In this document: in pieces, positions 1 to 46,149 of the stretch
Layout of the letters: each line of letters starts with the position of its first letter
How positions within the stretch are numbered: the first letter of the stretch is position 1
Source of the DNA: an uncultured Candidatus Saccharibacteria bacterium
GTDB lineage: Bacteria > Patescibacteriota > Minisyncoccia > Phycocordibacterales > PALSA-1337
Assembly: GCA_964403205.1 (NCBI GenBank)
Contig: CAYOER010000004.1
Coordinates: 1-48,521, forward strand
Length of the DNA: 48,521 bases
Direction of reading: 5' to 3'
Position numbers and translations under genes: made by a program
Notes under the pieces: generated by a model
The model's database searches: none
Told to the model about the DNA's origin: nothing
What the model saw: the letters and a program-made list of their open reading frames with translations, nothing else

Positions 1-2053
1 CAGCTTGTGCATTGATAAGCATCTTGATCGGCTGTTCGCCGACTGCAGAGGCACTTCCTGTAAGAGCGAAGTGGCTCTGCGCGTTGACACTAACATTTGC
101 GATCGGAATCTGAGCAATTCCACAGCATTGTTGCTGTGCGACGAGTCCAGTGACACTTCGGTCCACCTTATGAACCAGAAACCCTTTTGAGCCCACGCCA
201 GGAAGTTTGAAAACTTTTTCAATCGCCTCACCGACAGTGATACTCGGTAGGTCAAGTGCTTTCAACGCGAGATTCCGTCGTATTAACCCGAACGTCTTCT
301 GGGGCATATTCGTGAGAATCTGTTCCAAGTTCAGTTCGACGGGTGTTGTTCCATTTTGAGTATCCAGAACGACAACGTTTCCACTACCATCAATTTCACC
401 AAGGACTTCGCAGTTAACGCGCTCGCGTTTGCATATCGACTTGAAAAGCTCGATCTGCTCCGGCCTGATCAAGAGTCCGTATCCTTCTTGGAATTCGGCA
501 CTCCAAATTTTGAGAACTGACATCGTCTTGTCGCCAAGCACGATACCACGAATATCGATCTTGCCACCAAGTGGCTCAAGCAATTCCGTGAGGACATTGC
601 TCGGACCGCCGGCACCTTGATCGTGAATGCTTGAGATGGGATTGCTGTCTCCCATTTCGACGCAGGCCCGAATGACCCGATTCGCCCGATTCTCCATCTC
701 TGCGTTACCGCGTTGAACGGAGTTGAAATCGAGCGTCTCAGTGTTCTGACCTTGCATCATACTCGAGGCTGAACCTCCGCCAACCCCTATGGGATAGGCG
801 GGACCGCCGATACGCACGATGAGTATTCCAACTTCAGGTGTTTCTTTGGTGATGTGCCCGTCAAACAAATGACCTACACCACCGCTATAGAGGATCGGTT
901 TGCGAGGCTCGCGCCATTCATTTCCGATTGTCTGACCGAAAGTTCGAGTAAAGCCCAATGTAAGGGGTTCCCCGAACTGATTGCCGTAGCTTGATACGCC
1001 GTTGCTGCCCTCAATGAGAATCGAAAGTGGCGAAGCGTACTTCGACGGCTTGTCACTGCCGACAACCTCTCCTGGAATTTGATATCCGGGAATAAAAAGG
1101 TTTCCGACAAAGTAACCAGCGACGCCAATGCCAACGATCCCTCCACGTCCGACTGCTGAATTGTCACGTATCCGTCCGCCTGCGCCTGTTTGGGCACCAG
1201 GAAAGGGCGCGACGAATGTCGGATGGTTATGCGTCTCCGCGGTGCAAGTAATATGAACCAGCTTTTCCAAGATTCGCATTTCCGAAGGATTACCCGGAGT
1301 GACTGGTAGGATCAGACGTGCGTCGAATCCCTTGATCACACCGGCATTGTCTCTGAAGGCAACTAAGCTGCAGTTGTCGCTACCAAGATTTTGGAGTGGT
1401 CGCTGAACGATCTCAAACAATGTCTCCGGCATTGGTATTCCGTTGATGACGATCTGGCCTTTGAAGTACCAGTGCCGGCTGTGCTCACTGTTCGCGTTAC
1501 CCAGCTGGAACAATTCGACATCGGTCGGATTCCTACGAAGGACTTCAACAAAAAGATGCTGGTAGTACTCCATGTCCCAGGCATCCATACCAAGGCCGAG
1601 TGCACTGTTCATCTCTTCGAGTGCTTCTTTTCCGCGACCTATGAGGTCGATCACTCGGACATCTTCCGGTATGGTGATAGTGTCAAATGACTTGATACCT
1701 CCTGGTAAATGCTGTTCTGTCATTCGATCACAATTTTCTCTTAGAATATCACCATGAAATCCATAAGAAGCTTTGTATAAATGAGTGCGTTCAATTCGAG
1801 TAATTCGGGACATCCCCATATTATGGCAAATCGAGACAGCATTCGACGAGAACGGGGTCTCGATAGAAAGCCGGGGTCCGATTTCCACAAATCCCTTGAT
1901 ATGAGATTCGGTTCCTGTGTTGCCAGGCTCGAACGTTTCTGCAATAAGCCATTGGAGCTGTTTGAGCTCCGACTCAAACAATGGGCATGTGGTTTCAATA
2001 TAGAAACCAAGTTCCAAACCACTGTTAATACGACGGAAGATACTATAGATCAT
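1..2053 (-). CDS. purL: Phosphoribosylformylglycinamidine (FGAM) synthase, large single-chain type. N-terminal 684 codons only; the 3' end runs off the left window edge.
   Basis: Hand translation of the minus strand from ATG (2053-2051) stays open to position 2 (MIYSIFRRINSG...). It contains NANSEHSRHWYF and TAETHNHPTFVAPFPGAQTGAGGRIRD, which align with the E. coli PurL ANSEHCRH and ETHNHPT regions. It is absent from the supplied ORF track because there is no stop codon inside the window. Confidence 0.85.
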   Translation of the reverse strand, partial: MIYSIFRRINSGLELGFYIETTCPLFESELKQLQWLIAETFEPGNTGTESHIKGFVEIGPRLSIETPFSSNAVSICHNMGMSRITRIERTHLYKASYGFHGDILRENCDRMTEQHLPGGIKSFDTITIPEDVRVIDLIGRGKEALEEMNSALGLGMDAWDMEYYQHLFVEVLRRNPTDVELFQLGNANSEHSRHWYFKGQIVINGIPMPETLFEIVQRPLQNLGSDNCSLVAFRDNAGVIKGFDARLILPVTPGNPSEMRILEKLVHITCTAETHNHPTFVAPFPGAQTGAGGRIRDNSAVGRGGIVGIGVAGYFVGNLFIPGYQIPGEVVGSDKPSKYASPLSILIEGSNGVSSYGNQFGEPLTLGFTRTFGQTIGNEWREPRKPILYSGGVGHLFDGHITKETPEVGILIVRIGGPAYPIGVGGGSASSMMQGQNTETLDFNSVQRGNAEMENRANRVIRACVEMGDSNPISSIHDQGAGGPSNVLTELLEPLGGKIDIRGIVLGDKTMSVLKIWSAEFQEGYGLLIRPEQIELFKSICKRERVNCEVLGEIDGSGNVVVLDTQNGTTPVELNLEQILTNMPQKTFGLIRRNLALKALDLPSITVGEAIEKVFKLPGVGSKGFLVHKVDRSVTGLVAQQQCCGIAQIPIANVSVNAQSHFALTGSASAVGEQPIKMLINAQA

Positions 2054-2185
2054 AGGTTTCTCTTATTGTTTCTATTGTTTGTGGTTTTCAAAAAACAAAA
2101 CACCTAGATTAGGTGCTTCCAGTCTTAATATTACGTATAAATAGGTTTATTGCAAGAAAATGCCTTAAAATGTTTATATAGAAAT

Positions 2186-2210
2186 AAGCGGTCTTTTTTC
2201 AGAACCGCTT
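2186..2210 (-). terminator. Hairpin downstream of the purN stop
   Basis: 7-bp inverted repeat AAGCGGT/ACCGCTT (2186-2192 / 2204-2210). On the minus strand it is followed by ATTTCTATATAAACATTTT. Confidence 0.4.
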
Positions 2211-2234
2211 ACTGTGACGTTAGTGTCGTTCGCT

Positions 2235-2927
2235 TCATGAAAAGCATTCGATTGGATACCCGGCAGGAACTTCGAGGGAATCGGGGTTTATTCCGTCCCA
2301 CTTGATGAGTCCGTTCACCACCATACTGGTGATTTTTGGCTGATGAATGTGCTCCTGCTGATTGACTCTTGTTCCGATCGTATTTGACGTATCGTCGGCG
2401 TTGATCTTGACGTTACACCGGAAGAAAACCGGTCCGCGATCATATTCTCCGGTGACGAAATGCATCGAGACTGCCGAGTGTGTGATCTCGTGCCGTCCAA
2501 ACGCAGCCATGACAGCTTCGTGGACATGATGTCCATAAAGCCCCGGCCCACCAAAGTCCGGCAAAGGACCCGGATGGATATTGAAGACTGTCCGCGAATT
2601 GAATCGCGTAGCCGGATCGAGTCCAGTTACAAGCTTCAGCCATCCGGAGAGAGCAAAGAAGTCTGCTCCTGATGCCATTGCAATAGCCTGATAATCTGCA
2701 GGACCCCATGGGCCAGGGAAGGGATAAAAATCTACATGGAGTCTTGAGGCTCGCTCTCTGACCCCTCCATTCTCATGGTTACATACCACTCCTACAATCT
2801 GCGCCTTAAGAATCCCTTGATCGACTGCTTCGACAAGCTTTTCAAAGCCCGAACCGCCACTAGTTTTTGAACCGCTGGCAAAAACTAAAAGTTTTGGTGT
2901 CTCTAGGTATTTATTCACTAAGCTCAT
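2235..2927 (-). CDS. purN: Phosphoribosylglycinamide formyltransferase
   Basis: 230-aa ORF with formyltransferase core motifs (VFNIHPGPLPDFGGPGLYG, HHVHEAV). It is adjacent to purL and purD. Confidence 0.8.
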   Translation of the reverse strand: MSLVNKYLETPKLLVFASGSKTSGGSGFEKLVEAVDQGILKAQIVGVVCNHENGGVRERASRLHVDFYPFPGPWGPADYQAIAMASGADFFALSGWLKLVTGLDPATRFNSRTVFNIHPGPLPDFGGPGLYGHHVHEAVMAAFGRHEITHSAVSMHFVTGEYDRGPVFFRCNVKINADDTSNTIGTRVNQQEHIHQPKITSMVVNGLIKWDGINPDSLEVPAGYPIECFS

Positions 2928-3083
2928 ATGTTCAATTGTATTGTTGTTTCTGCTAATCTAGTGAAAGTATTGATTAAAAATGAATTTTTTGCAACTCCCA
3001 AAATTTTATTGCCTTTTGTCAAATAATAGGTAATATTATGGCTAGAGCTTGAACATCTAACAAAAGAAAAGGAGAACCAAGTC

Positions 3084-4376
3084 ATGAACCAGAAGAAAGT
3101 ACTGCTCGTTGGTGGCGGTGGACGAGAACATGCCATTGCATGGAAGCTCCGTCAGTCACGACGTCTCAGCAAACTCTACGTTGCCCCCGGTAATGCCGGC
3201 ACAGCGCAGATCGCGGAAAATGTTCCGTTGAAAGCAACGGACATCGATGGCCTCTTGGCCTTCGCACTCAAGGAAGAAATCGAATTCACGATCGTTGGCC
3301 AGGATGATCCGCTCGCGCTCGGCATCGTCGATGCATTCCAGGTAAAAGGTTTGATCATTTTCGGTCCGACCAAAGCAGCCGCACAGATTGAAGCATCGAA
3401 GGTATTCTCGAAACGTCTAATGAAAGACTGTGGCGTGCCGACAGCGTTGTTCGATGTTTACATGGACCACGTTCAAGCCCTCGAGAACGTGCGCAGGTAT
3501 TTTGCTACGTACTCCGGGCTACCGATTGTCGTGAAGGCATCAGGCCTTGCTCTCGGAAAGGGAGCGTACGTCTGCCACGATCTTGTAGAAGCTGAAGAGG
3601 CTCTCGACGAGGTTATGGTGAAGCGTCTTCACGGAAGTGCCGGCGATGAGGTCATAATCGAAGAATATGTAGGCGGACAGGAAGTGTCCATCCATGCGTT
3701 CTGCGATGGCAAGTCGTTCAAGTTATTTCCGTCAGCACAGGATCATAAGCCAGCATTTGACGGCGATAAAGGTCCAAACACTGGCGGAATGGGAACGATT
3801 GCTCCAGTCCCGTGGTTTAACGGCCACGATGCTGTGAGTGAACAGATCGTCGGTCCGATTCTCGGCGGACTCCGTGAAAAAGGCTCGCCGTTCGTCGGAC
3901 TGCTTTATCCAGGACTCAAGATGCCGGAAGCAGGACCGATGGTCCTCGAGTTCAACGCTCGGTTCGGCGATCCGGAAACGCAAGTTTACATGCGCCTTCT
4001 GAAAACCGATCTTATCGATATCTTCGAGGCTTGCGTTGAAGAGCGACTCCACGAGATTAATGTCGAGTGGAATCCTGGCTTTGCTGCCTGCGTCGTGATG
4101 GCGTCTGGCGGATACCCGTCGCCTGACTACAAGAAAGGTTTGCCGATCACTGGTATTGATAACGCCGAGATTCTTCCTAGCGTAGTCGTGTTCCATGCAG
4201 GGACCAAGCAAGCTGACGGTCAGCTCGTCACATCTGGCGGACGTGTCCTCGGTGTCACCGGTATTGGCGCAACACTTCAGGAAGCTCTTGATCACGCTTA
4301 CAACGGCGTCGAGTGTATCCACTTCGAAGGGATGCAGTACCGAAAGGACATCGGTGCGAAATCTATCGGTGTGTGA
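3084..4376 (+). CDS. purD: Phosphoribosylamine-glycine ligase (GAR synthetase)
   Basis: 430-aa ORF starting MNQKKVLLVGGGGREHAIAWKL, with an ATP-grasp body (NTGGMGT, EFNARFGDPETQ). AAGGAGA Shine-Dalgarno lies 9 nt upstream of the ATG. Confidence 0.95.
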   Translation: MNQKKVLLVGGGGREHAIAWKLRQSRRLSKLYVAPGNAGTAQIAENVPLKATDIDGLLAFALKEEIEFTIVGQDDPLALGIVDAFQVKGLIIFGPTKAAAQIEASKVFSKRLMKDCGVPTALFDVYMDHVQALENVRRYFATYSGLPIVVKASGLALGKGAYVCHDLVEAEEALDEVMVKRLHGSAGDEVIIEEYVGGQEVSIHAFCDGKSFKLFPSAQDHKPAFDGDKGPNTGGMGTIAPVPWFNGHDAVSEQIVGPILGGLREKGSPFVGLLYPGLKMPEAGPMVLEFNARFGDPETQVYMRLLKTDLIDIFEACVEERLHEINVEWNPGFAACVVMASGGYPSPDYKKGLPITGIDNAEILPSVVVFHAGTKQADGQLVTSGGRVLGVTGIGATLQEALDHAYNGVECIHFEGMQYRKDIGAKSIGV

Positions 4377-4401
4377 AGATGTCCTCATTTGTAAAAACAA
4401 T

Positions 4402-4438
4402 GCCTGCGATCTAAAAAATCGCAGGCCTATTTTATTTG
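4402..4438 (+). terminator. Rho-independent terminator after purD
   Basis: 9-bp stem GCCTGCGAT/ATCGCAGGC (4402-4410 / 4418-4426), 7-nt loop, then CTATTTTATTTG. Confidence 0.6.
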
Positions 4439-4599
4439 CCTTTTATTAAATCCAGAGTAAGATAATCACAAACACTGAACATTAATCAAACCTATGAATA
4501 TGACCCATGCGAGTACTGGCGTCAATTACGATGCCATGGATCCACACAAACGTAAATCGCTAGAGGCTGGTACGAGAACCAAACTTCTTGGAGTATTTT

Positions 4600-4639
4600 T
4601 ATATATAAAAACAGCGCCAGACTTTGCTAGTCTAGCGCT
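4600..4639 (-). terminator. Rho-independent terminator after the 154-aa orphan gene
   Basis: Hairpin AGCGCCAGACT-TTGCT-AGTCTAGCGCT (4613-4639, one mismatch). On the minus strand it is followed by GTTTTTATATAT. Confidence 0.5.
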
Positions 4640-4664
4640 TAGTGGAAACATCACCACATGAAAA

Positions 4665-5129
4665 TCAAACAAAGAGACTATCTGGTGGTTGCCAATTCTG
4701 ACTACTGAAAGCCATAAAGCGAATAGTGAGGGGTGCCGGACATTCAACGAAAACATTGCCGATATGCCATGTTTCTCTGAATCTTTTCATCAAATCCACG
4801 AGTTCGCCATGTTCATCAGATAATCCATTATTCCTGTAATTATTCCCCATCCGTATCGCCAAGGCCATCAGATAGTTGTTGACGAAATCGTAAAGTTCTT
4901 CATATGTACCATGTTTCAGCACATGATACATTCGAAAGCCGAAAATATCCCTGAACTCCTTTGTCTTCTTACGAAGAAACACAGCTTCGCCATGTCCCAC
5001 CCGTATCCACCTAGGGAAAAAGAAGACCCTGATGGAATAGACCAAGCCGTGAGCAGACAATACATCTTCTGCTTGTACATCCATCCTGTTTACCTTAACC
5101 AGATACCGTCTGATGATTTTAATATCCAT
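4665..5129 (-). CDS. Hypothetical protein (orphan, 154 aa)
   Basis: ORF with a strong Shine-Dalgarno (GGGAGGTG, 4 nt before the ATG on the minus strand) and its own terminator. No family recognised. It lies in the GC-rich left block. Confidence 0.55.
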   Translation of the reverse strand: MDIKIIRRYLVKVNRMDVQAEDVLSAHGLVYSIRVFFFPRWIRVGHGEAVFLRKKTKEFRDIFGFRMYHVLKHGTYEELYDFVNNYLMALAIRMGNNYRNNGLSDEHGELVDLMKRFRETWHIGNVFVECPAPLTIRFMAFSSQNWQPPDSLFV

Positions 5130-6206: not shown

Positions 6207-6858
6207 CTCTTATTATTTTACCTTTTTCCATAGTTATTACCCTACCCCCTACTGTATCTACAACACCTTTATTATGTGTGGTCATGAGAATTGTGGTGCC
6301 AAGTTCATTTATTTTCTGTAAAATCTTTATTATTCCATAGGTATTGATAGGATCTATACTCCCAGTAGGCTCATCTGCGATTATTATATCTGGCTGATTA
6401 ACTATTGCACGAGCGATAGCTACTCTCTGCTTCTCTCCACCAGACAGCTGATGCGGGAAATTCCACATTTTATCTCCGAGATCTACAAGATCGAGAACAT
6501 ATGGCACATCTGATGATATTTCCTTATCCGTATGACCAGAAACTTCCATTGCAAAAGCTATGTTTTCATAAGCGGTTTTATTGAGAATTAGTCGGAAATC
6601 TTGGAAAACTGTGCCGATACGCCTACGGAGCTTATTCATCTCTTTTCTCTTCAGATGATGTATGTTTTTTGATTCAAAAAATACAATGCCATCGGTAGGA
6701 CGATCTTCAGCTATAAGCATTCTTATAAGAGTAGTCTTACCAGCACCAGAATGTCCGACAATAGTTACAAATTCATTTGGTTCAACGGTAAAACTGACAT
6801 TGTCTAGGGCAATGCTTTGATCTGGATATACCTTTGTAACTTTATCGAAATAAATCAT
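6178..6858 (-). CDS. ftsE: Cell division ABC transporter ATP-binding protein FtsE
   Basis: Walker A GHSGAGKTT, ABC signature LSGGEKQR, Walker B IIIADEP. Confidence 0.9.
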   Translation of the reverse strand: MIYFDKVTKVYPDQSIALDNVSFTVEPNEFVTIVGHSGAGKTTLIRMLIAEDRPTDGIVFFESKNIHHLKRKEMNKLRRRIGTVFQDFRLILNKTAYENIAFAMEVSGHTDKEISSDVPYVLDLVDLGDKMWNFPHQLSGGEKQRVAIARAIVNQPDIIIADEPTGSIDPINTYGIIKILQKINELGTTILMTTHNKGVVDTVGGRVITMEKGKIIRDDKEGKYSL

Positions 6859-42257: not shown

Positions 42258-44138
42258 TCAATATCTTCTCCTTGAGTCTCCCCCTGCTCTTCTTGTCGGA
42301 TCATCTTTCGTTATATAGAGTATTATATCTCTTGCCTTTTCTGCACTACCGTTTTTCCCTGTGATGAATACACTGCCATCATCCTCTATAGTTATATCTT
42401 CTACCATAGTTCTTTCTTTTATTTCATTTATAGTTTTTCCACCTGTACCTATTACTAGACCTATTTGACTATCTTTTATTTTTATAGATATTATTTTCGG
42501 TGCATTTGGGGAAATATCTGCTCTAGGTTTAGGAATTTCTTTTTCAATTAAATCTAGTATTCTATATCTTGCATCTTTTGCTTTCTCTAGGGCTTCTCCG
42601 AGAACATGTAGAGGAATACCACCGACTTTTATATCCATTTGAACTGCGGTTATTCCATTTCTAGTACCTGCAACTTTGAAATCCATATCACCATAATGAT
42701 CCTCCGGTCCTTGTATATCTGTTAGTATCTTATATTTATCTCCTAACATCATGAGTCCAGAGGCGATACCTGCTACGGGAGCTTTTATCGGTACTCCTGC
42801 ATCCATAAGGGCAAGTGTAGATCCGCATACAGAACCCATAGATGTGGAACCATTTGATGAAAATGCTTCTGATACTATACGTATAGTATATGGAAATGAT
42901 TCTTTTGAAGGTATTACTGGCACTAGAGCCTTCTCTGCTAGAGCACCATGACCTATCATTCTCCTATTCATACCACCGACTCTGCCTGTTTCTCCAGTAG
43001 AGAATGGTGGGAAATTATAATGATGCATGAATCTTTTTGCTGGGGTTTTCTCCATACCATCTGCTATCTGTGCATCTCCGGGTCCACCTAAGGTCAATGC
43101 AGATAGTACATGTGTTTCTCCTCTATAGAATATTCCAGATCCATGTAGAATAGGAGATATTCCACCCGCTTTCACAAAGAGTGTTCGTATTTCATCGAAT
43201 CCTCTACCATCTACCCTTCTATTATTATGTATAGCTTCCCTATGTATGAAATCATTCATTTTTTCTTCGAAACATTCCTGTGCTAGAACAGTATTTCCCT
43301 CTGGGATTTTTTCTATAAATAATTCCATCCATATTTTATCTATTTCTGCTATTTTTTCTTTTGTAGCAGAATATTCCAATAATTTTGGAGTTATTTCTTT
43401 ATCAAATAATTCATGAGTTCCTACTGTTGGTTCTGGCTTTGCTATTACTATTTTCTTTTTACCCATTTCAGAGATTATTTTCTTTTGCCAAATCTGTATT
43501 TTCTCTATTTCCTCACTGGCTTTTACTAGAGCTTCATTTATCAATTCTTCTTTCACTTCCATACCAGATACTTCTATCATATTGATAAAGCCATCTTTAC
43601 CACAAGCTACTAGGTCAAGACTTATACCTACAGCTTCTCTCTGTATATAGTTTGGATTAATATGAAAAGTTTCATTTTTTGCTATACGTATTGCAGATAC
43701 TGGTCCATTCCAAGGTATATCAGATGTTCCTAGTGCAAGTGATGCTGCTATTACAGATATTATATCTGGATCGTCTTCGTCTATTGATAGTACAGTGAGT
43801 ATTACCTGTACTTCATGACGTATATGATTATCAAAAAGTGGTCTTATAGTTCTATCTACTATTCTTCCAGAGAGTATCGCTTCATCGCTCGGCTTGCCCT
43901 CTCTTCTCATGAATCTACTACCTAATATTTTTCCAGAAGCATAGAATCTTTCTTCATAGTCAACTGTTAATGGAAAGAAATTCCCCTCTTTCTCACCACT
44001 ACCCATAACTGCTGTGGCTAGTACTACGGTATTGCCATAGCGTACCATTACGGAACCATTTGCTTGTAATGCTAGATCATTGAATTCTGCTGTTAATACC
44101 TTCCCTCCAATTTCTATAGAATAGTTTTTGGTTTTCAT
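42258..44138 (-). CDS. pnp: Polyribonucleotide nucleotidyltransferase (PNPase), short form without an S1 domain
   Basis: Two RNase PH domains and a KH domain (IGLVIGTGGKTINEIKE). The protein ends about 60 aa after KH in an Arg-rich tail. Confidence 0.9.
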   Translation of the reverse strand: MKTKNYSIEIGGKVLTAEFNDLALQANGSVMVRYGNTVVLATAVMGSGEKEGNFFPLTVDYEERFYASGKILGSRFMRREGKPSDEAILSGRIVDRTIRPLFDNHIRHEVQVILTVLSIDEDDPDIISVIAASLALGTSDIPWNGPVSAIRIAKNETFHINPNYIQREAVGISLDLVACGKDGFINMIEVSGMEVKEELINEALVKASEEIEKIQIWQKKIISEMGKKKIVIAKPEPTVGTHELFDKEITPKLLEYSATKEKIAEIDKIWMELFIEKIPEGNTVLAQECFEEKMNDFIHREAIHNNRRVDGRGFDEIRTLFVKAGGISPILHGSGIFYRGETHVLSALTLGGPGDAQIADGMEKTPAKRFMHHYNFPPFSTGETGRVGGMNRRMIGHGALAEKALVPVIPSKESFPYTIRIVSEAFSSNGSTSMGSVCGSTLALMDAGVPIKAPVAGIASGLMMLGDKYKILTDIQGPEDHYGDMDFKVAGTRNGITAVQMDIKVGGIPLHVLGEALEKAKDARYRILDLIEKEIPKPRADISPNAPKIISIKIKDSQIGLVIGTGGKTINEIKERTMVEDITIEDDGSVFITGKNGSAEKARDIILYITKDDPTRRAGGDSRRRY

Positions 44139-44145
44139 GACTATA

Positions 44146-44154
44146 ACTATACCA
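44146..44154 (-). promoter_or_regulatory. Extended -10 promoter of pnp (leaderless layout)
   Basis: The minus strand reads TGGTATAGT-TATAGTC-ATG. Confidence 0.5.
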
Positions 44155-44185
44155 CTATTAATTTAGAATTCCACAGCAATAAATT

Positions 44186-44223
44186 TAATAAAAATTTAAC
44201 CCCACACATTTCTGTATGGGGTT
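44186..44223 (-). terminator. Rho-independent terminator after the 88-aa ORF
   Basis: 7-bp stem AACCCCA/TGGGGTT (44198-44204 / 44217-44223). On the minus strand it is followed by AAATTTTTATT. Confidence 0.55.
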
Positions 44224-44260
44224 GGAGTTTGTTTACGCTATTCTCCAGAGCAGTTGTGAG

Positions 44261-44527
44261 CTAACTGCTGACGGACAAGCCTAATTTATTCAGATCTGAT
44301 CGCGTTACTCCTTTCTTTAACAGAAATGAACGTATCAGTCTAACACTGGCAACATGTCCTCGACAGCGCTTCTCTGAAGTGAAGTGCTTATGGAAGACTA
44401 TTTTTCTTCCGAATCTCCCAACAATGTTCCATTGCCAGACACCATCGTCGTTAGAGAGAAATGCTCGAGTGTAGCTGTACTTCACGCGGATATGCATGCC
44501 ATTTTTTGCTATTCTAGCTTTAATCAT
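44261..44527 (-). CDS. Hypothetical basic protein (88 aa)
   Basis: ORF in the GC-elevated islet, downstream of the hammerhead motif. The pattern DDGVWQWNIVGRFGRKIVFHKHFTSEKRCRGHVASV is only loosely reminiscent of DUF1508/YegP-type repeats. Confidence 0.45.
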   Translation of the reverse strand: MIKARIAKNGMHIRVKYSYTRAFLSNDDGVWQWNIVGRFGRKIVFHKHFTSEKRCRGHVASVRLIRSFLLKKGVTRSDLNKLGLSVSS

Positions 44528-44566
44528 ATGTAGTCTTTCATTTGATTGTTTTTTGTCAAAGATCTT

Positions 44567-44618
44567 TCTGTTTCATCCTTTCGGAATCATCAGTCGAGAT
44601 AACACATCTCGATACAGA
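44567..44618 (-). ncRNA. Type III hammerhead ribozyme motif
   Basis: The minus strand reads UCUGUA/UCGAGAU-GUGUU-AUCUCGA-CUGAUGA-UUCC-GAAA-GGAU-GAAA-CAGA. Stem III is 5 bp, the cleavage triplet is GUA, stem I is 7 bp, and both conserved core strands are in place. The only deviation is a U.U at positions 10.1/11.1. Confidence 0.7.
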
Positions 44619-44643
44619 GGAAGGTTTTAAGTAGAAACCTTCC
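44619..44643 (-). other. Stable hairpin between the 161-aa ORF stop and the ribozyme
   Basis: 9-bp stem GGAAGGTTT/AAACCTTCC with a 7-nt loop. No U-tract follows it on the minus strand. Confidence 0.6.
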
Positions 44644-44654
44644 AAAACTTGTAC

Positions 44655-45140
44655 CTACTTGCGAGGTTTGACGAATGCCCATAACGTATTAGTGTCAAAC
44701 CCCTTTGCGTCTTCCACATAGCAACCTAATCCTGCGGTACCCCGATTCCCAACAATCAGGTATACATCCTTTCTATTCCCCATGGGTTCCGTCGAAGCAA
44801 TGTTGACTTCTTCATAACCGCATGAGGCCTTGCCTTGGATAAGAAGCTGTGGACCTACTTCTTGCGGACATTCTTGCAGGCCTAGCGAGACGCCAAGTTG
44901 GCAAATCTCTAGGCGTGACATCCTTTTTCTCTTCCCACCAAAGAGACAAGGCCGGATAGTGACCAAATCCAGAGTCTTGAAGGACTGAATCACGAACGGT
45001 AAGCTCTTATCCCAAGAGCGAATGATGGGGAGTTGTAAAAGGGCGTATTCGATATCATCCATGGTGCGGAAGATACCAACATTTACTGTTGCCCAGATAA
45101 AATCTGGAATCTTAGACATGATTGTTGTATTTGTCGGCAT
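44655..45140 (-). CDS. Hypothetical protein (orphan, 161 aa)
   Basis: ORF in the GC-elevated islet. No family recognised. It has a long CA-rich 5' region. Confidence 0.5.
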   Translation of the reverse strand: MPTNTTIMSKIPDFIWATVNVGIFRTMDDIEYALLQLPIIRSWDKSLPFVIQSFKTLDLVTIRPCLFGGKRKRMSRLEICQLGVSLGLQECPQEVGPQLLIQGKASCGYEEVNIASTEPMGNRKDVYLIVGNRGTAGLGCYVEDAKGFDTNTLWAFVKPRK

Positions 45141-45192
45141 AGGTTTATTCTTTCGTTTTGGTTTGTTGTGATTGTTTGGTTTGCAAGCAGGT

Positions 45193-45366
45193 TATCAATG
45201 AACTCATCTTTCTGCTATAAGTATATCATAACTTATATAGATTGTCAATTGTATTCATCAATAAAATTATCAATATATCCATATATATCAATCTATTTCG
45301 GTATACTCACATATTATTGTGGGAAATCATTGACACAAAGATACATTTGGGTATATAATTATCAAT
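45193..45366 (+). repeat. Array of direct TATCAAT heptamers (iteron- or operator-like)
   Basis: Exact TATCAAT at 45193, 45268, 45286 and 45360. Variants are TGTCAAT at 45243 and CATCAAT at 45256. All copies are in the same orientation. Confidence 0.5.
45330..45359 (+). promoter_or_regulatory. Consensus sigma70 promoter of the TrmB-like gene (leaderless layout)
   Basis: TTGACA-18 nt-TATAAT, followed by 7 nt (TATCAAT) and then the ATG at 45367. Confidence 0.6.
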
Positions 45367-46149
45367 ATGAAAGAAAATAATGAATTAAAACTAGCTTTAC
45401 GATCACTAGACTTTAGTGAAAAAGAGGCAACAGTATACATAGCAATTTTAGGCTTAGGAAAAGGCACAGTATCTCAAATATCTAGAAAAGCAGGTATAAA
45501 TCGTACCACTGGCTATGAAATCCTTGATTCTTTGATAAGTAAAGGGGTTGTTAATTTATCTGGCAAGGAACCAAAAACTGAATATGCTGTTGAACCCCCA
45601 GAGGCTCTAACTGAATATTTTATGAAGGAAGCAAATAACGCTAAAGATCGTATCGAAAAGGTAAAAAGTTTTATTCCACAACTTTTAATGGTTTATGCAA
45701 CTCAAAATAGACCTCGTATCAAATTTTACGAAGGAATTGAAGGTTTAAAATATGTTTATGAAGATACATTGACTTCAAAAGAATCAATTCGTGCTTATGC
45801 AACGGTAGATGATATGCATAATACTCTTCCTAATTATTTTCCAGAATATTATAAACGACGTGCAGGAAAAAATATCTCAATTAGAGCTATTGCGCCAAAG
45901 ACAGAGATGGGTCTTGAACGTAAAGAGCTTGATGCAGAAGAAAAACGCGAAATTGCTTTTATCCCTGCTGATAAATATTATTTTTCTCCTGAAATCAATA
46001 TTTACGATAATAAGGTAATGATTGCTTCATGGAAAGAGAAACTAGGATTGATAATAGAAAGCACAGAAATTGCCGATGCTATGAAGAAAATATATGAATT
46101 AGCGTGGGCGGAGGCAAAAAGATTGGATAATAAAGATAATAATTTATAA
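45367..46149 (+). CDS. TrmB-family transcriptional regulator (260 aa)
   Basis: N-terminal wHTH (FSEKEATVYIAILGLGKGTVSQISRKAGINRTTGYEILDSLISKGVV) plus the usual TrmB C-terminal domain. Confidence 0.8.
   Translation: MKENNELKLALRSLDFSEKEATVYIAILGLGKGTVSQISRKAGINRTTGYEILDSLISKGVVNLSGKEPKTEYAVEPPEALTEYFMKEANNAKDRIEKVKSFIPQLLMVYATQNRPRIKFYEGIEGLKYVYEDTLTSKESIRAYATVDDMHNTLPNYFPEYYKRRAGKNISIRAIAPKTEMGLERKELDAEEKREIAFIPADKYYFSPEINIYDNKVMIASWKEKLGLIIESTEIADAMKKIYELAWAEAKRLDNKDNNL

Follow-up and report, generated by a model that had tools for sequence, protein, structure and literature searches.

The stretch of DNA considered here, referred to throughout as the window, comprises positions 1 to 48,521 of contig CAYOER010000004.1 (assembly GCA_964403205.1) and derives from an uncultivated groundwater bacterium assigned to Candidatus Saccharibacteria. 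Towards its end, on the minus strand, lies a short putative transcription unit with a GC content of 0.45-0.51, against about 0.33 for the genome. In it a promoter, a conserved gene of 161 codons (ORF161), a motif of the type III hammerhead ribozyme form, a reading frame of 88 codons (ORF88) and an intrinsic terminator follow one another in the same orientation, such that the hammerhead occupies an intercistronic, co-oriented position (Table 1). Transcription would be expected to start near 45213. Downstream is the gene for a polynucleotide phosphorylase (PNPase), whilst upstream are a divergent gene for a TrmB-family regulator and one for a Bro-N protein. The initial annotation of this DNA had described the hammerhead, a hairpin immediately before it and a 127-nt spacer between two co-oriented reading frames; all of these were found as described, with the type III assignment and anatomy correct and the motif sequence exact to the base. 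Sequence comparisons with related loci make it probable that the motif is functional within the transcript bounded by the predicted promoter and terminator, and that its co-transcriptional self-cleavage would separate the two cistrons.

Table 1. Features of the hammerhead-containing unit in the window, and the order of elements at related loci
Feature	Position	Strand	Remarks
Sigma-70-type promoter (putative)	45220-45248	-	TTGACA, 17 nt, TATACT, with TG before the -10 box; identified purely by consensus matches (11/12)
ORF161	44655-45140	-	Conserved protein of 161 aa; homologues have 64-91% identity
Upstream hairpin	44619-44643	-	9 bp, GGAAGGUUU / AAACCUUCC, 7-nt loop; directly abuts stem III
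Type III hammerhead ribozyme	44567-44618	-	Covariance-model matches reach 44565-44620; covariation in relatives
Stem III	44614-44618 with 44567-44571	-	UCUGU/ACAGA, including A15.1-U16.1
Cleavage triplet GUA	A17 at 44613	-	Predicted cut between 44613 and 44612 (nucleotide 1.1)
Stem I	44607-44612 with 44594-44599	-	6 bp
Loop 1	44600-44606	-	UGUGUUA, 7 nt; closes the stem I hairpin (44594-44612)
Core strand CUGAUGA	44587-44593	-	Aligned to RF00008 and R1 core columns
Stem II	44583-44586 with 44575-44578	-	3 Watson-Crick pairs and a U10.1.U11.1 mismatch
Loop 2	44579-44582	-	GAAA; caps stem II
Core strand GAA	44572-44574	-	Aligned to RF00008 and R1 core columns
A-rich leader	44528-44566	-	From hammerhead to ORF88 ATG; contains a CUUUGA box common to related loci
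ORF88	44261-44527	-	Orphan reading frame of 88 aa, putatively coding; starts 39 nt after the hammerhead
Intrinsic terminator	44190-44223	-	11-pair stem (44198-44223), then T-rich tail
Locus L001			Promoter, hammerhead, ORF88', hairpin, hammerhead, ORF165, hairpin, hammerhead, ORF120, terminator
Locus L007			Hammerhead, ORF61, hairpins, hammerhead, ORF163, ORF218
Locus L008			ORF101, hairpin, hammerhead, ORF161, terminator; 88.5% nucleotide identity over ORF161
Locus L016			ORF165, hammerhead, ORF243, hammerhead
Locus L017			Hammerhead, ORF99, hammerhead, ORF166
Locus L215			ORF165, hairpin, hammerhead, second paralogue, terminator
Locus L004			Without hammerhead; unit ends at the same terminator

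The hammerhead motif

Read from 44618 to 44567 on the minus strand, the motif is UCUGUA-UCGAGA-UGUGUUA-UCUCGA-CUGAUGA-UUCC-GAAA-GGAU-GAAA-CAGA. It shares with the Rfam type III family, RF00008 (Hammerhead_3), the open junction at stem III, the hairpin-closed stems I and II and the invariant core C3 U4 G5 A6 U7 G8 A9 / G12 A13 A14; the centroid fold and the two covariance models agree in predicting this three-helix topology. The A15.1-U16.1 pair is formed by the A at 44571 and the U at 44614, and residue 17 of the GUA triplet is an A, a non-G as the NUH cleavage rule demands. Although the stem I hairpin is present as first annotated, the seven pairs then assigned to it reduce to a conserved helix of 6 bp, a seventh U-A pair being merely possible. 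The window copy differs from the RF00008 consensus in that U10.1 (44586) and U11.1 (44575) are unpaired where a Watson-Crick pair, by consensus G-C, is expected, and the subfamily to which it belongs has loops of its own, UGUGYR and NAAA.

RF00008 aligns to the motif from end to end with 33.9 bits (E = 6.9e-6 in a search of 241 nt and 3.7e-5 in one of 1.3 kb), an E-value that, scaled arithmetically to the whole window, amounts to about 1e-3. With a subfamily covariance model constructed from 122 relatives, from which the window sequence was excluded (R1), the same site scored 65.6 bits (E = 5.9e-18) and was the sole match in 48.5 kb; a second hammerhead upstream of ORF161 is thus absent from the window. 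A permissive Rfam scan of 44100-45400 returned nothing else credible, hence the GC-rich unit does not correspond to a known large non-coding RNA.

A fortuitous resemblance of an intergenic spacer to the hammerhead consensus can practically be dismissed. The core is short, and the isolated motif has an unremarkable folding z-score, but the E-values with both models speak against coincidence, as do the hammerheads with compensatory stem changes at corresponding sites of related loci: in L001 and L215 these follow the ORF161 homologue, and in L008 the hammerhead lies in the same linker, which there precedes the homologue. As judged from sequence and covariation, the window motif is a genuine type III hammerhead RNA.

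A hammerhead subfamily and its U.U variant

Relatives were sought using a pattern in which the core, the UGUG of loop 1 and the four innermost stem III pairs were fixed, whilst stems I and II were left free. This matched at least 120 stretches in IMG/VR, the subfamily being abundant in viral contigs, and at least 119 in GTDB species genomes; altogether, 240 distinct hammerhead copies were collected (loci L001-L257). About 60 of the 80 genome records listed (about 75%) belong to named Patescibacteria lineages, the remainder being ten unnamed bacteria and ten members of other phyla; the Patescibacteria among the matches listed include Saccharibacteria, Paceibacterota/Parcubacteria and Kaiser-, Nomura-, Taylor- and Vogelbacteria. 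Patescibacteria constitute well under a tenth of the species in the GTDB collection and, set against this share as it is generally given, the subfamily looks strongly enriched in them. When the pattern-matched copies in 16 loci were scanned with RF00008, the gathering threshold caught 2 of 30. The subfamily is large, largely missed by standard Rfam annotation, and apparently concentrated in Patescibacteria and viral contigs.

The subfamily consensus has a 6 bp stem I, a 4 bp stem II, the loop 1 sequence UGUGYR and a loop 2 of the form NAAA; across the 240 unique copies, UGUGUA or UGUGUG in loop 1 and AAAA or GAAA in loop 2 are strongly conserved. Stem I exceeds stem II by 2 bp, a difference that has been linked to the loop-loop pseudoknots of type III hammerheads (Perreault 2011, PMC3088659). 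The constancy of the core, of the UGUG and of the inner four stem III pairs follows from the design of the search. Stems I and II were free to vary, and stem I and positions 2-4 of stem II are paired in at least 99% of the 240 copies, using all four types of Watson-Crick pair. Within stem I, 99.6% of cells are paired, every position has at least four pair types and both sides have changed at 6/6 pairs; positions 2-4 of stem II are likewise paired in nearly all copies, with both-side changes at each. In an alignment of 122 sequences (A3), 89% of cells were paired compared with 64% after shuffling, and controls in which the partner strand was slid gave 34-45%; the covariation score was 0.698 against 0.195 in shuffles, none of 500 of which scored as high. 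A further alignment of 145 model-based matches, which did not have to conform to the pattern (A4), reveals covariation in stem III as well, with A15.1-U16.1 retained in 140/140 copies.

Three copies have C at core position 4 (CCGAUGA) with their stems intact: L001 3521-3575 (57.3 bits with R1), L016 575-629 (66.3 bits) and the truncated copy at L007 1-32 (29.3 bits). In the Patescibacteria contigs L140 (up to six copies), L153, L155, L160 and L193, four to six hammerheads are clustered on a single strand over 3-4 kb. According to a crude list of reading frames, the genes flanking hammerheads in genome loci perhaps include one for an ArdC-like antirestriction protein, as a candidate only. Between two hammerheads of the five-copy array on the Saccharibacteria contig L160 lies a segment of 65 nt (6449-6513, minus strand) that matches the termini of the tmRNA model with 65.1 bits, above gathering, and may represent a tRNA-like element freed by the ribozyme cuts.

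The U.U at 10.1/11.1 had been singled out at first as the one departure from consensus. The mismatch is present and does leave three Watson-Crick pairs in stem II, but it is no oddity. Among 234 unique copies these positions are G-C in 162, U.U in 56, A.A in 11, G.U in three and C.A in two, with no instance of A-U, U-A or C-G; moreover, natural U10.1-U11.1 hammerheads have been reported, U-U being the most active of the mispairs (Perreault 2011, PMC3088659). Since 56 of the 234 relatives carry it and the variant is published, U.U is a tolerated departure rather than grounds for exclusion from the family. The 56 U.U copies comprise 43 distinct stem I sequences, every one of which is fully paired, as would be expected under selection rather than from relics.

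These data bear directly on the suggestion that the change from G10.1-C11.1 to U.U killed or crippled the ribozyme, leaving a young, inactive relic in the window. The RF00008 score lies below the gathering score and below those of the G-C relatives L008 (44.6 bits) and L007 (43.9 bits), and loop 1 is 7 nt long, where 6 nt is usual. Yet stems I and II remain fully paired across the U.U copies, the hammerhead of L215 is identical to that of the window despite diverged flanks, L206 combines the mismatch with another stem I sequence, and the loop UGUGUUA, with its 7 nt, is found in six unique copies. Inactivation therefore seems highly improbable, given also the published activity of the mispair; both this reading and that of a chance match fit the data poorly.

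The identity of the 10.1/11.1 positions also tracks that of base 17: G-C copies have C17 in 118/162 cases, U.U copies A17 in 38/56 and A.A copies U17 in 8/11. The association (chi-square p ~8e-21, uncorrected for relatedness) holds separately in the viral and genome sets, and the window copy, which combines U.U with A17 (44575, 44586 and 44613), conforms to the trend.

The hairpin-ribozyme-leader module and the genes around it

The hairpin preceding the window ribozyme has a compensatory A-U to G-C change in L215, and is one instance of a general feature. Across the subfamily, the 40 nt upstream of the ribozymes have a mean folding energy of -11.4 kcal/mol, whereas the downstream 40 nt reach -3.7 and windows taken at random from these loci -5.5 (p ~1e-29); where an upstream hairpin is present, 0-1 nt separates it from stem III in most cases. 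The 40 nt on the other side have less structure than random windows (-3.3 versus -5.5; p 4e-22) and a higher A content (0.39 versus 0.30 in random windows of the same loci; p 4e-26). An open reading frame (ORF) ends upstream in 231/294 copies, at a median distance of 41 nt, and one starts downstream in 251/294, at a median of 30 nt; in loci with multiple copies, all hammerheads are on one strand in 36/37. Both the hairpin-ribozyme-leader architecture and the intercistronic position are conserved across the subfamily. The family-wide hairpin, the compensation in L215 and the position between cistrons lend comparative support to the layout originally proposed, in which the upstream product of cleavage would end in a hairpin and the downstream product would start with the ribozyme scaffold. 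Neither the abutting upstream hairpin nor the composite of hairpin and leader was found described in the report on phage hammerhead arrays (Perreault 2011, PMC3088659).

A CUUUGA box lies ~10 nt downstream of the hammerhead (44550-44558 in the window) in all six ORF161-linked modules, namely those of the window, L215, L206, L008, L001 and L016 (alignment A5). Base-pairing of this box with the GAAAG(G)A that immediately precedes the start codon is conceivable.

The initial annotation had regarded both flanking reading frames as orphans. In the case of ORF161 this does not stand: a profile search with a cut-off of E<=1e-3 recovers 159 cluster representatives of a family characterised by an invariant cysteine (Cys91 in ORF161) in an LCPxEVGPQL motif; ORF161 itself also has a C-terminal VFVKPRK. 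The family is without a sequence match in Pfam (including all 68 members), PHROG or the PDB, and a protein-based scan for it in genome contigs returned no locus. AlphaFold2 modelled the protein with a pLDDT of 93 from a 68-sequence alignment, as opposed to 43 from eight sequences, and Foldseek comparisons of the model with the PDB and BFVD gave no significant fold match; similarities to the C-type lectin and DUF1566 folds were weak (TM <=0.4, E >=0.016) and are not relied upon.

ORF88, by contrast, was found to be without homologues, and may be a true orphan or not a gene at all. No relative was found in 5.8 billion proteins, a collection from which ORF88 itself is absent; no gene was called at its position by the annotators of six identical contigs; tblastn found no match beyond these identical contigs in 257 fetched loci; and there is no Pfam match and only marginal ones to PHROG (E about 0.2). 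A search of its six frames with the ORF161 profile ruled out a decayed ORF161 paralogue.

It is therefore necessary to weigh a reading in which ORF88 is non-coding and the ribozyme mainly generates the 3' end of the ORF161 mRNA or silences what lies downstream, the 5'-OH fragment being degraded or serving as a non-coding RNA. Besides the absence of homologues and of gene calls, this accords with a weak or absent Shine-Dalgarno sequence before ORF88, with the slightly better folding of the downstream 341 nt relative to shuffled sequence (z -2.3), and with L004 and L008, in which the homologous unit ends immediately past the ORF161 homologue at the same terminator. On the other hand, ORF88 is the sole long frame in the stretch between ribozyme and terminator, and fills it, beginning at a distance close to the subfamily median and finishing just before the terminator; a reading frame starting about 30 nt downstream of the hammerhead is the subfamily norm; L215 and L001 have clearly conserved genes downstream of the same module; and, from the starts of PNPase and ORF161, other genes of this genome also appear to lack strong Shine-Dalgarno sequences. 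Whilst it merits consideration, we think this reading rather unlikely, and favour the separation of two cistrons.

The surroundings of the module were further compared between loci. Among contigs encoding ORF161 homologues, a hammerhead adjoins the homologue in 7/8 distinct loci, with three copies in L001 and two each in L016 and L017. The locus in L206, a Candidatus Taylorbacteria genome, has the TrmB neighbour, with 72% protein identity, and a U.U hammerhead in the same linker whose stem I differs from that of the window. Relative to the window, L001 and L008 have G10.1-C11.1 together with compensatory changes in stems I and II, so that, with L206 and the hairpin of L215, compensatory changes are seen in four homologous loci. 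L215 is syntenic with the window, but has a different gene downstream of the hammerhead, the similarity between the two ending at 44535, eight bases ahead of the ORF88 start codon; here two ORF161-family paralogues are found in tandem with the hammerhead between them.

The TrmB neighbour, promoter and terminator are common to the window, L008, L206, L215 and L004; in L008, L215 and L004 the homologous promoter is correspondingly placed and the homologous unit closes with the same terminator sequence. The genes flanking the linker nevertheless differ: ORF161 and ORF88 in the window, ORF101 and ORF161 in L008, an ORF101-like gene and ORF258 in L206, and the two ORF161 paralogues in L215, whilst L004 has no linker. 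The window lacks the ORF101-hairpin-hammerhead block that L008 has. In L008, where a different gene precedes the linker, the final 11 bases (CCTCGCAAGTA) of an ORF161-type gene still stand before it; hence the linker is more stable than the genes it separates.

Such turnover raises the question of whether the module is primarily a junction of mobile or exchangeable cassettes, with cleavage, and possibly ligation into circles as in retrozymes, serving their spread. The differing genes around a conserved linker in five syntenic loci and the remnant in L008 would be consistent with this, as would the elevated GC content of the unit, the flanking of two genes in L007 by direct repeats of the hairpin module and the proximity of L001 to a gene for a type IV secretion coupling protein. 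However, no integrase, reverse transcriptase or target-site duplication was seen near the unit, and the window transcript contains no excisable unit, as it has a single ribozyme. A search for splicing or circularisation products of tandem phage hammerheads found none (Perreault 2011, PMC3088659), and ordinary homologous recombination can also yield gene turnover around a conserved regulatory linker. Spread as the primary role consequently seems improbable, more so than a ribozyme that solely ends or silences an mRNA, and the separation of cistrons remains the reading we prefer.

Several other features of these loci were recorded. The repeated L007 module is a ~58-nt double hairpin (255-312 and 1560-1617) bracketing the ORF163-ORF218 block, its first copy being followed by a hammerhead and its second by a T-run, acting as a terminator. 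L004 encodes a LOOT RNA (RF03000; 890-1003, minus strand; 76.4 bits, above the gathering score) ~2.4 kb upstream of its ORF161 homologue, past the divergent TrmB gene. The PNPase of the window (42258-44138, minus strand) is short, at 626 aa, having RNase PH and KH domains without an S1 domain match. The GC content is also raised at window positions 1-5000 (0.44-0.52 against about 0.33), a stretch that contains genes for a purN-like formyltransferase (2235-2927, minus strand) and purD (3084-4376, plus strand), and may have been horizontally acquired.

Proposed RNA processing and its significance

Under the proposed mechanism, the ribozyme would fold in the nascent RNA and cut itself after A17. 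The upstream RNA, carrying ORF161, would then end in the 9-bp hairpin followed by a 6-nt tail with a 2',3'-cyclic phosphate, a structure resembling an intrinsic terminator that should resist 3' exonucleases. The downstream RNA would begin with a 5'-OH on a nucleotide already paired in stem I, and would consist of the stem I hairpin, later the weakly structured A-rich leader, and then the start codon of ORF88. Two separate molecules with defined, protected ends would result, the stability and translation of each being independent of the other. We infer that the window copy cleaves in vivo and that cleavage has these protective and uncoupling consequences.

A number of observations weigh against this interpretation. 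At the level of the motif, the RF00008 gathering score is 48.5 bits, which the window copy does not reach, and since it falls short by this measure the hammerhead is not listed in a whole-window Rfam scan at the gathering threshold, which reported tRNA only. The initial annotation had treated a score below this threshold as grounds for abandoning the assignment; the score is formally below it, but as the threshold misses 28 of the 30 subfamily members scanned, this is not a valid test and does not count against the window motif. Folded in isolation, the 66 nt have an ordinary energy (z -0.81), hence support for the structure comes from the covariance models and homologues rather than from thermodynamics. 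When the spacer was folded as 141 nt, the lowest-energy structure broke stem III, whilst the centroid fold retained stems I and II and three stem III pairs. It must also be borne in mind that the search pattern was derived from the window motif itself, meaning that only stems I and II and the flanks constitute free tests.

Further such points relate to the activity and consequences of the ribozyme. G10.1 is generally held to form part of a metal-binding site, and its loss means that the window copy may cleave more slowly than G-C copies. The transcript contains just one hammerhead, and hence departs from the arrangement of several per operon. The second cistron may not exist, as ORF88 is without homologues and uncalled by annotators. 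Finally, RNase J1 of Bacillus can be drawn to 5'-OH ends such as that left by the glmS ribozyme; the downstream product could therefore be destabilised instead of protected.

The hammerhead class, its intercistronic context, described in 2011, and the U.U core variant are already known. Tandem hammerheads flank prophage genes, and three such phage arrays cleaved during in vitro transcription, leading to the proposal that they process polycistronic RNA into gene-length mRNAs (Perreault 2011, PMC3088659). The subfamily resembles these arrays in being intercistronic and, in the relatives of the window copy, in having several copies per operon with variable small genes between them. The window locus differs in the uncultivated, Patescibacteria-type host, in the lack of phage structural genes at the locus, in the single copy in the window and in the fixed module of abutting hairpin and A-rich leader.

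Comparisons may also be drawn with two further systems. Retrozymes and viroid-like circular RNAs (Cervera 2016, PMC4918200) likewise use type III hammerheads, and same-strand pairs in the relatives bracket a unit that would in principle be excisable; unlike retrozymes, these loci have neither long terminal repeats nor the context of a reverse transcriptase, what is bracketed consists of ordinary protein-coding genes carried by DNA genomes, and the window has one copy only. RiboJ-type insulators are engineered from the sTRSV hammerhead and a hairpin, cleavage removing the upstream context and leaving a structured 5' end before the leader. By analogy, the cleavage proposed here would leave a structured 5' end and make downstream expression independent of what lies upstream; the present module differs in being natural, and in that its extra hairpin is upstream of the ribozyme, on the 5' product, where that of RiboJ is downstream.

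A broader proposal can be made only tentatively, and we would not call it probable: that the GC-rich hairpin, UGUG-loop hammerhead and A-rich leader form a standardised, lineage-wide punctuation of operons in Patescibacteria and in phages, with small, fast-evolving genes exchanged as cassettes at the linkers and self-cleavage, not host RNases, giving each cassette protected ends and its own translation start. The co-variation of 10.1/11.1 with base 17 would, as part of this proposal, reflect an unrecognised coupling within the core.

What may be new is the size of the subfamily and its bias towards Patescibacteria, the failure of standard annotation to reveal it, and the fixed module of hairpin, ribozyme and leader; a literature search of incomplete coverage found no paper linking hammerhead ribozymes with Patescibacteria. 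The role of bacterial hammerheads is still considered an open question (review PMC6765202). The fixed architecture makes the mRNA-processing hypothesis concrete, in that it would provide a protected 3' end, a 5' end paired within stem I and an unstructured leader, and related loci with the same linker between different genes, alongside L004 without it, constitute natural experiments. As the genomes of Patescibacteria are reduced, ribozyme-based separation of cistrons would be informative regarding how gene expression is organised in these bacteria.

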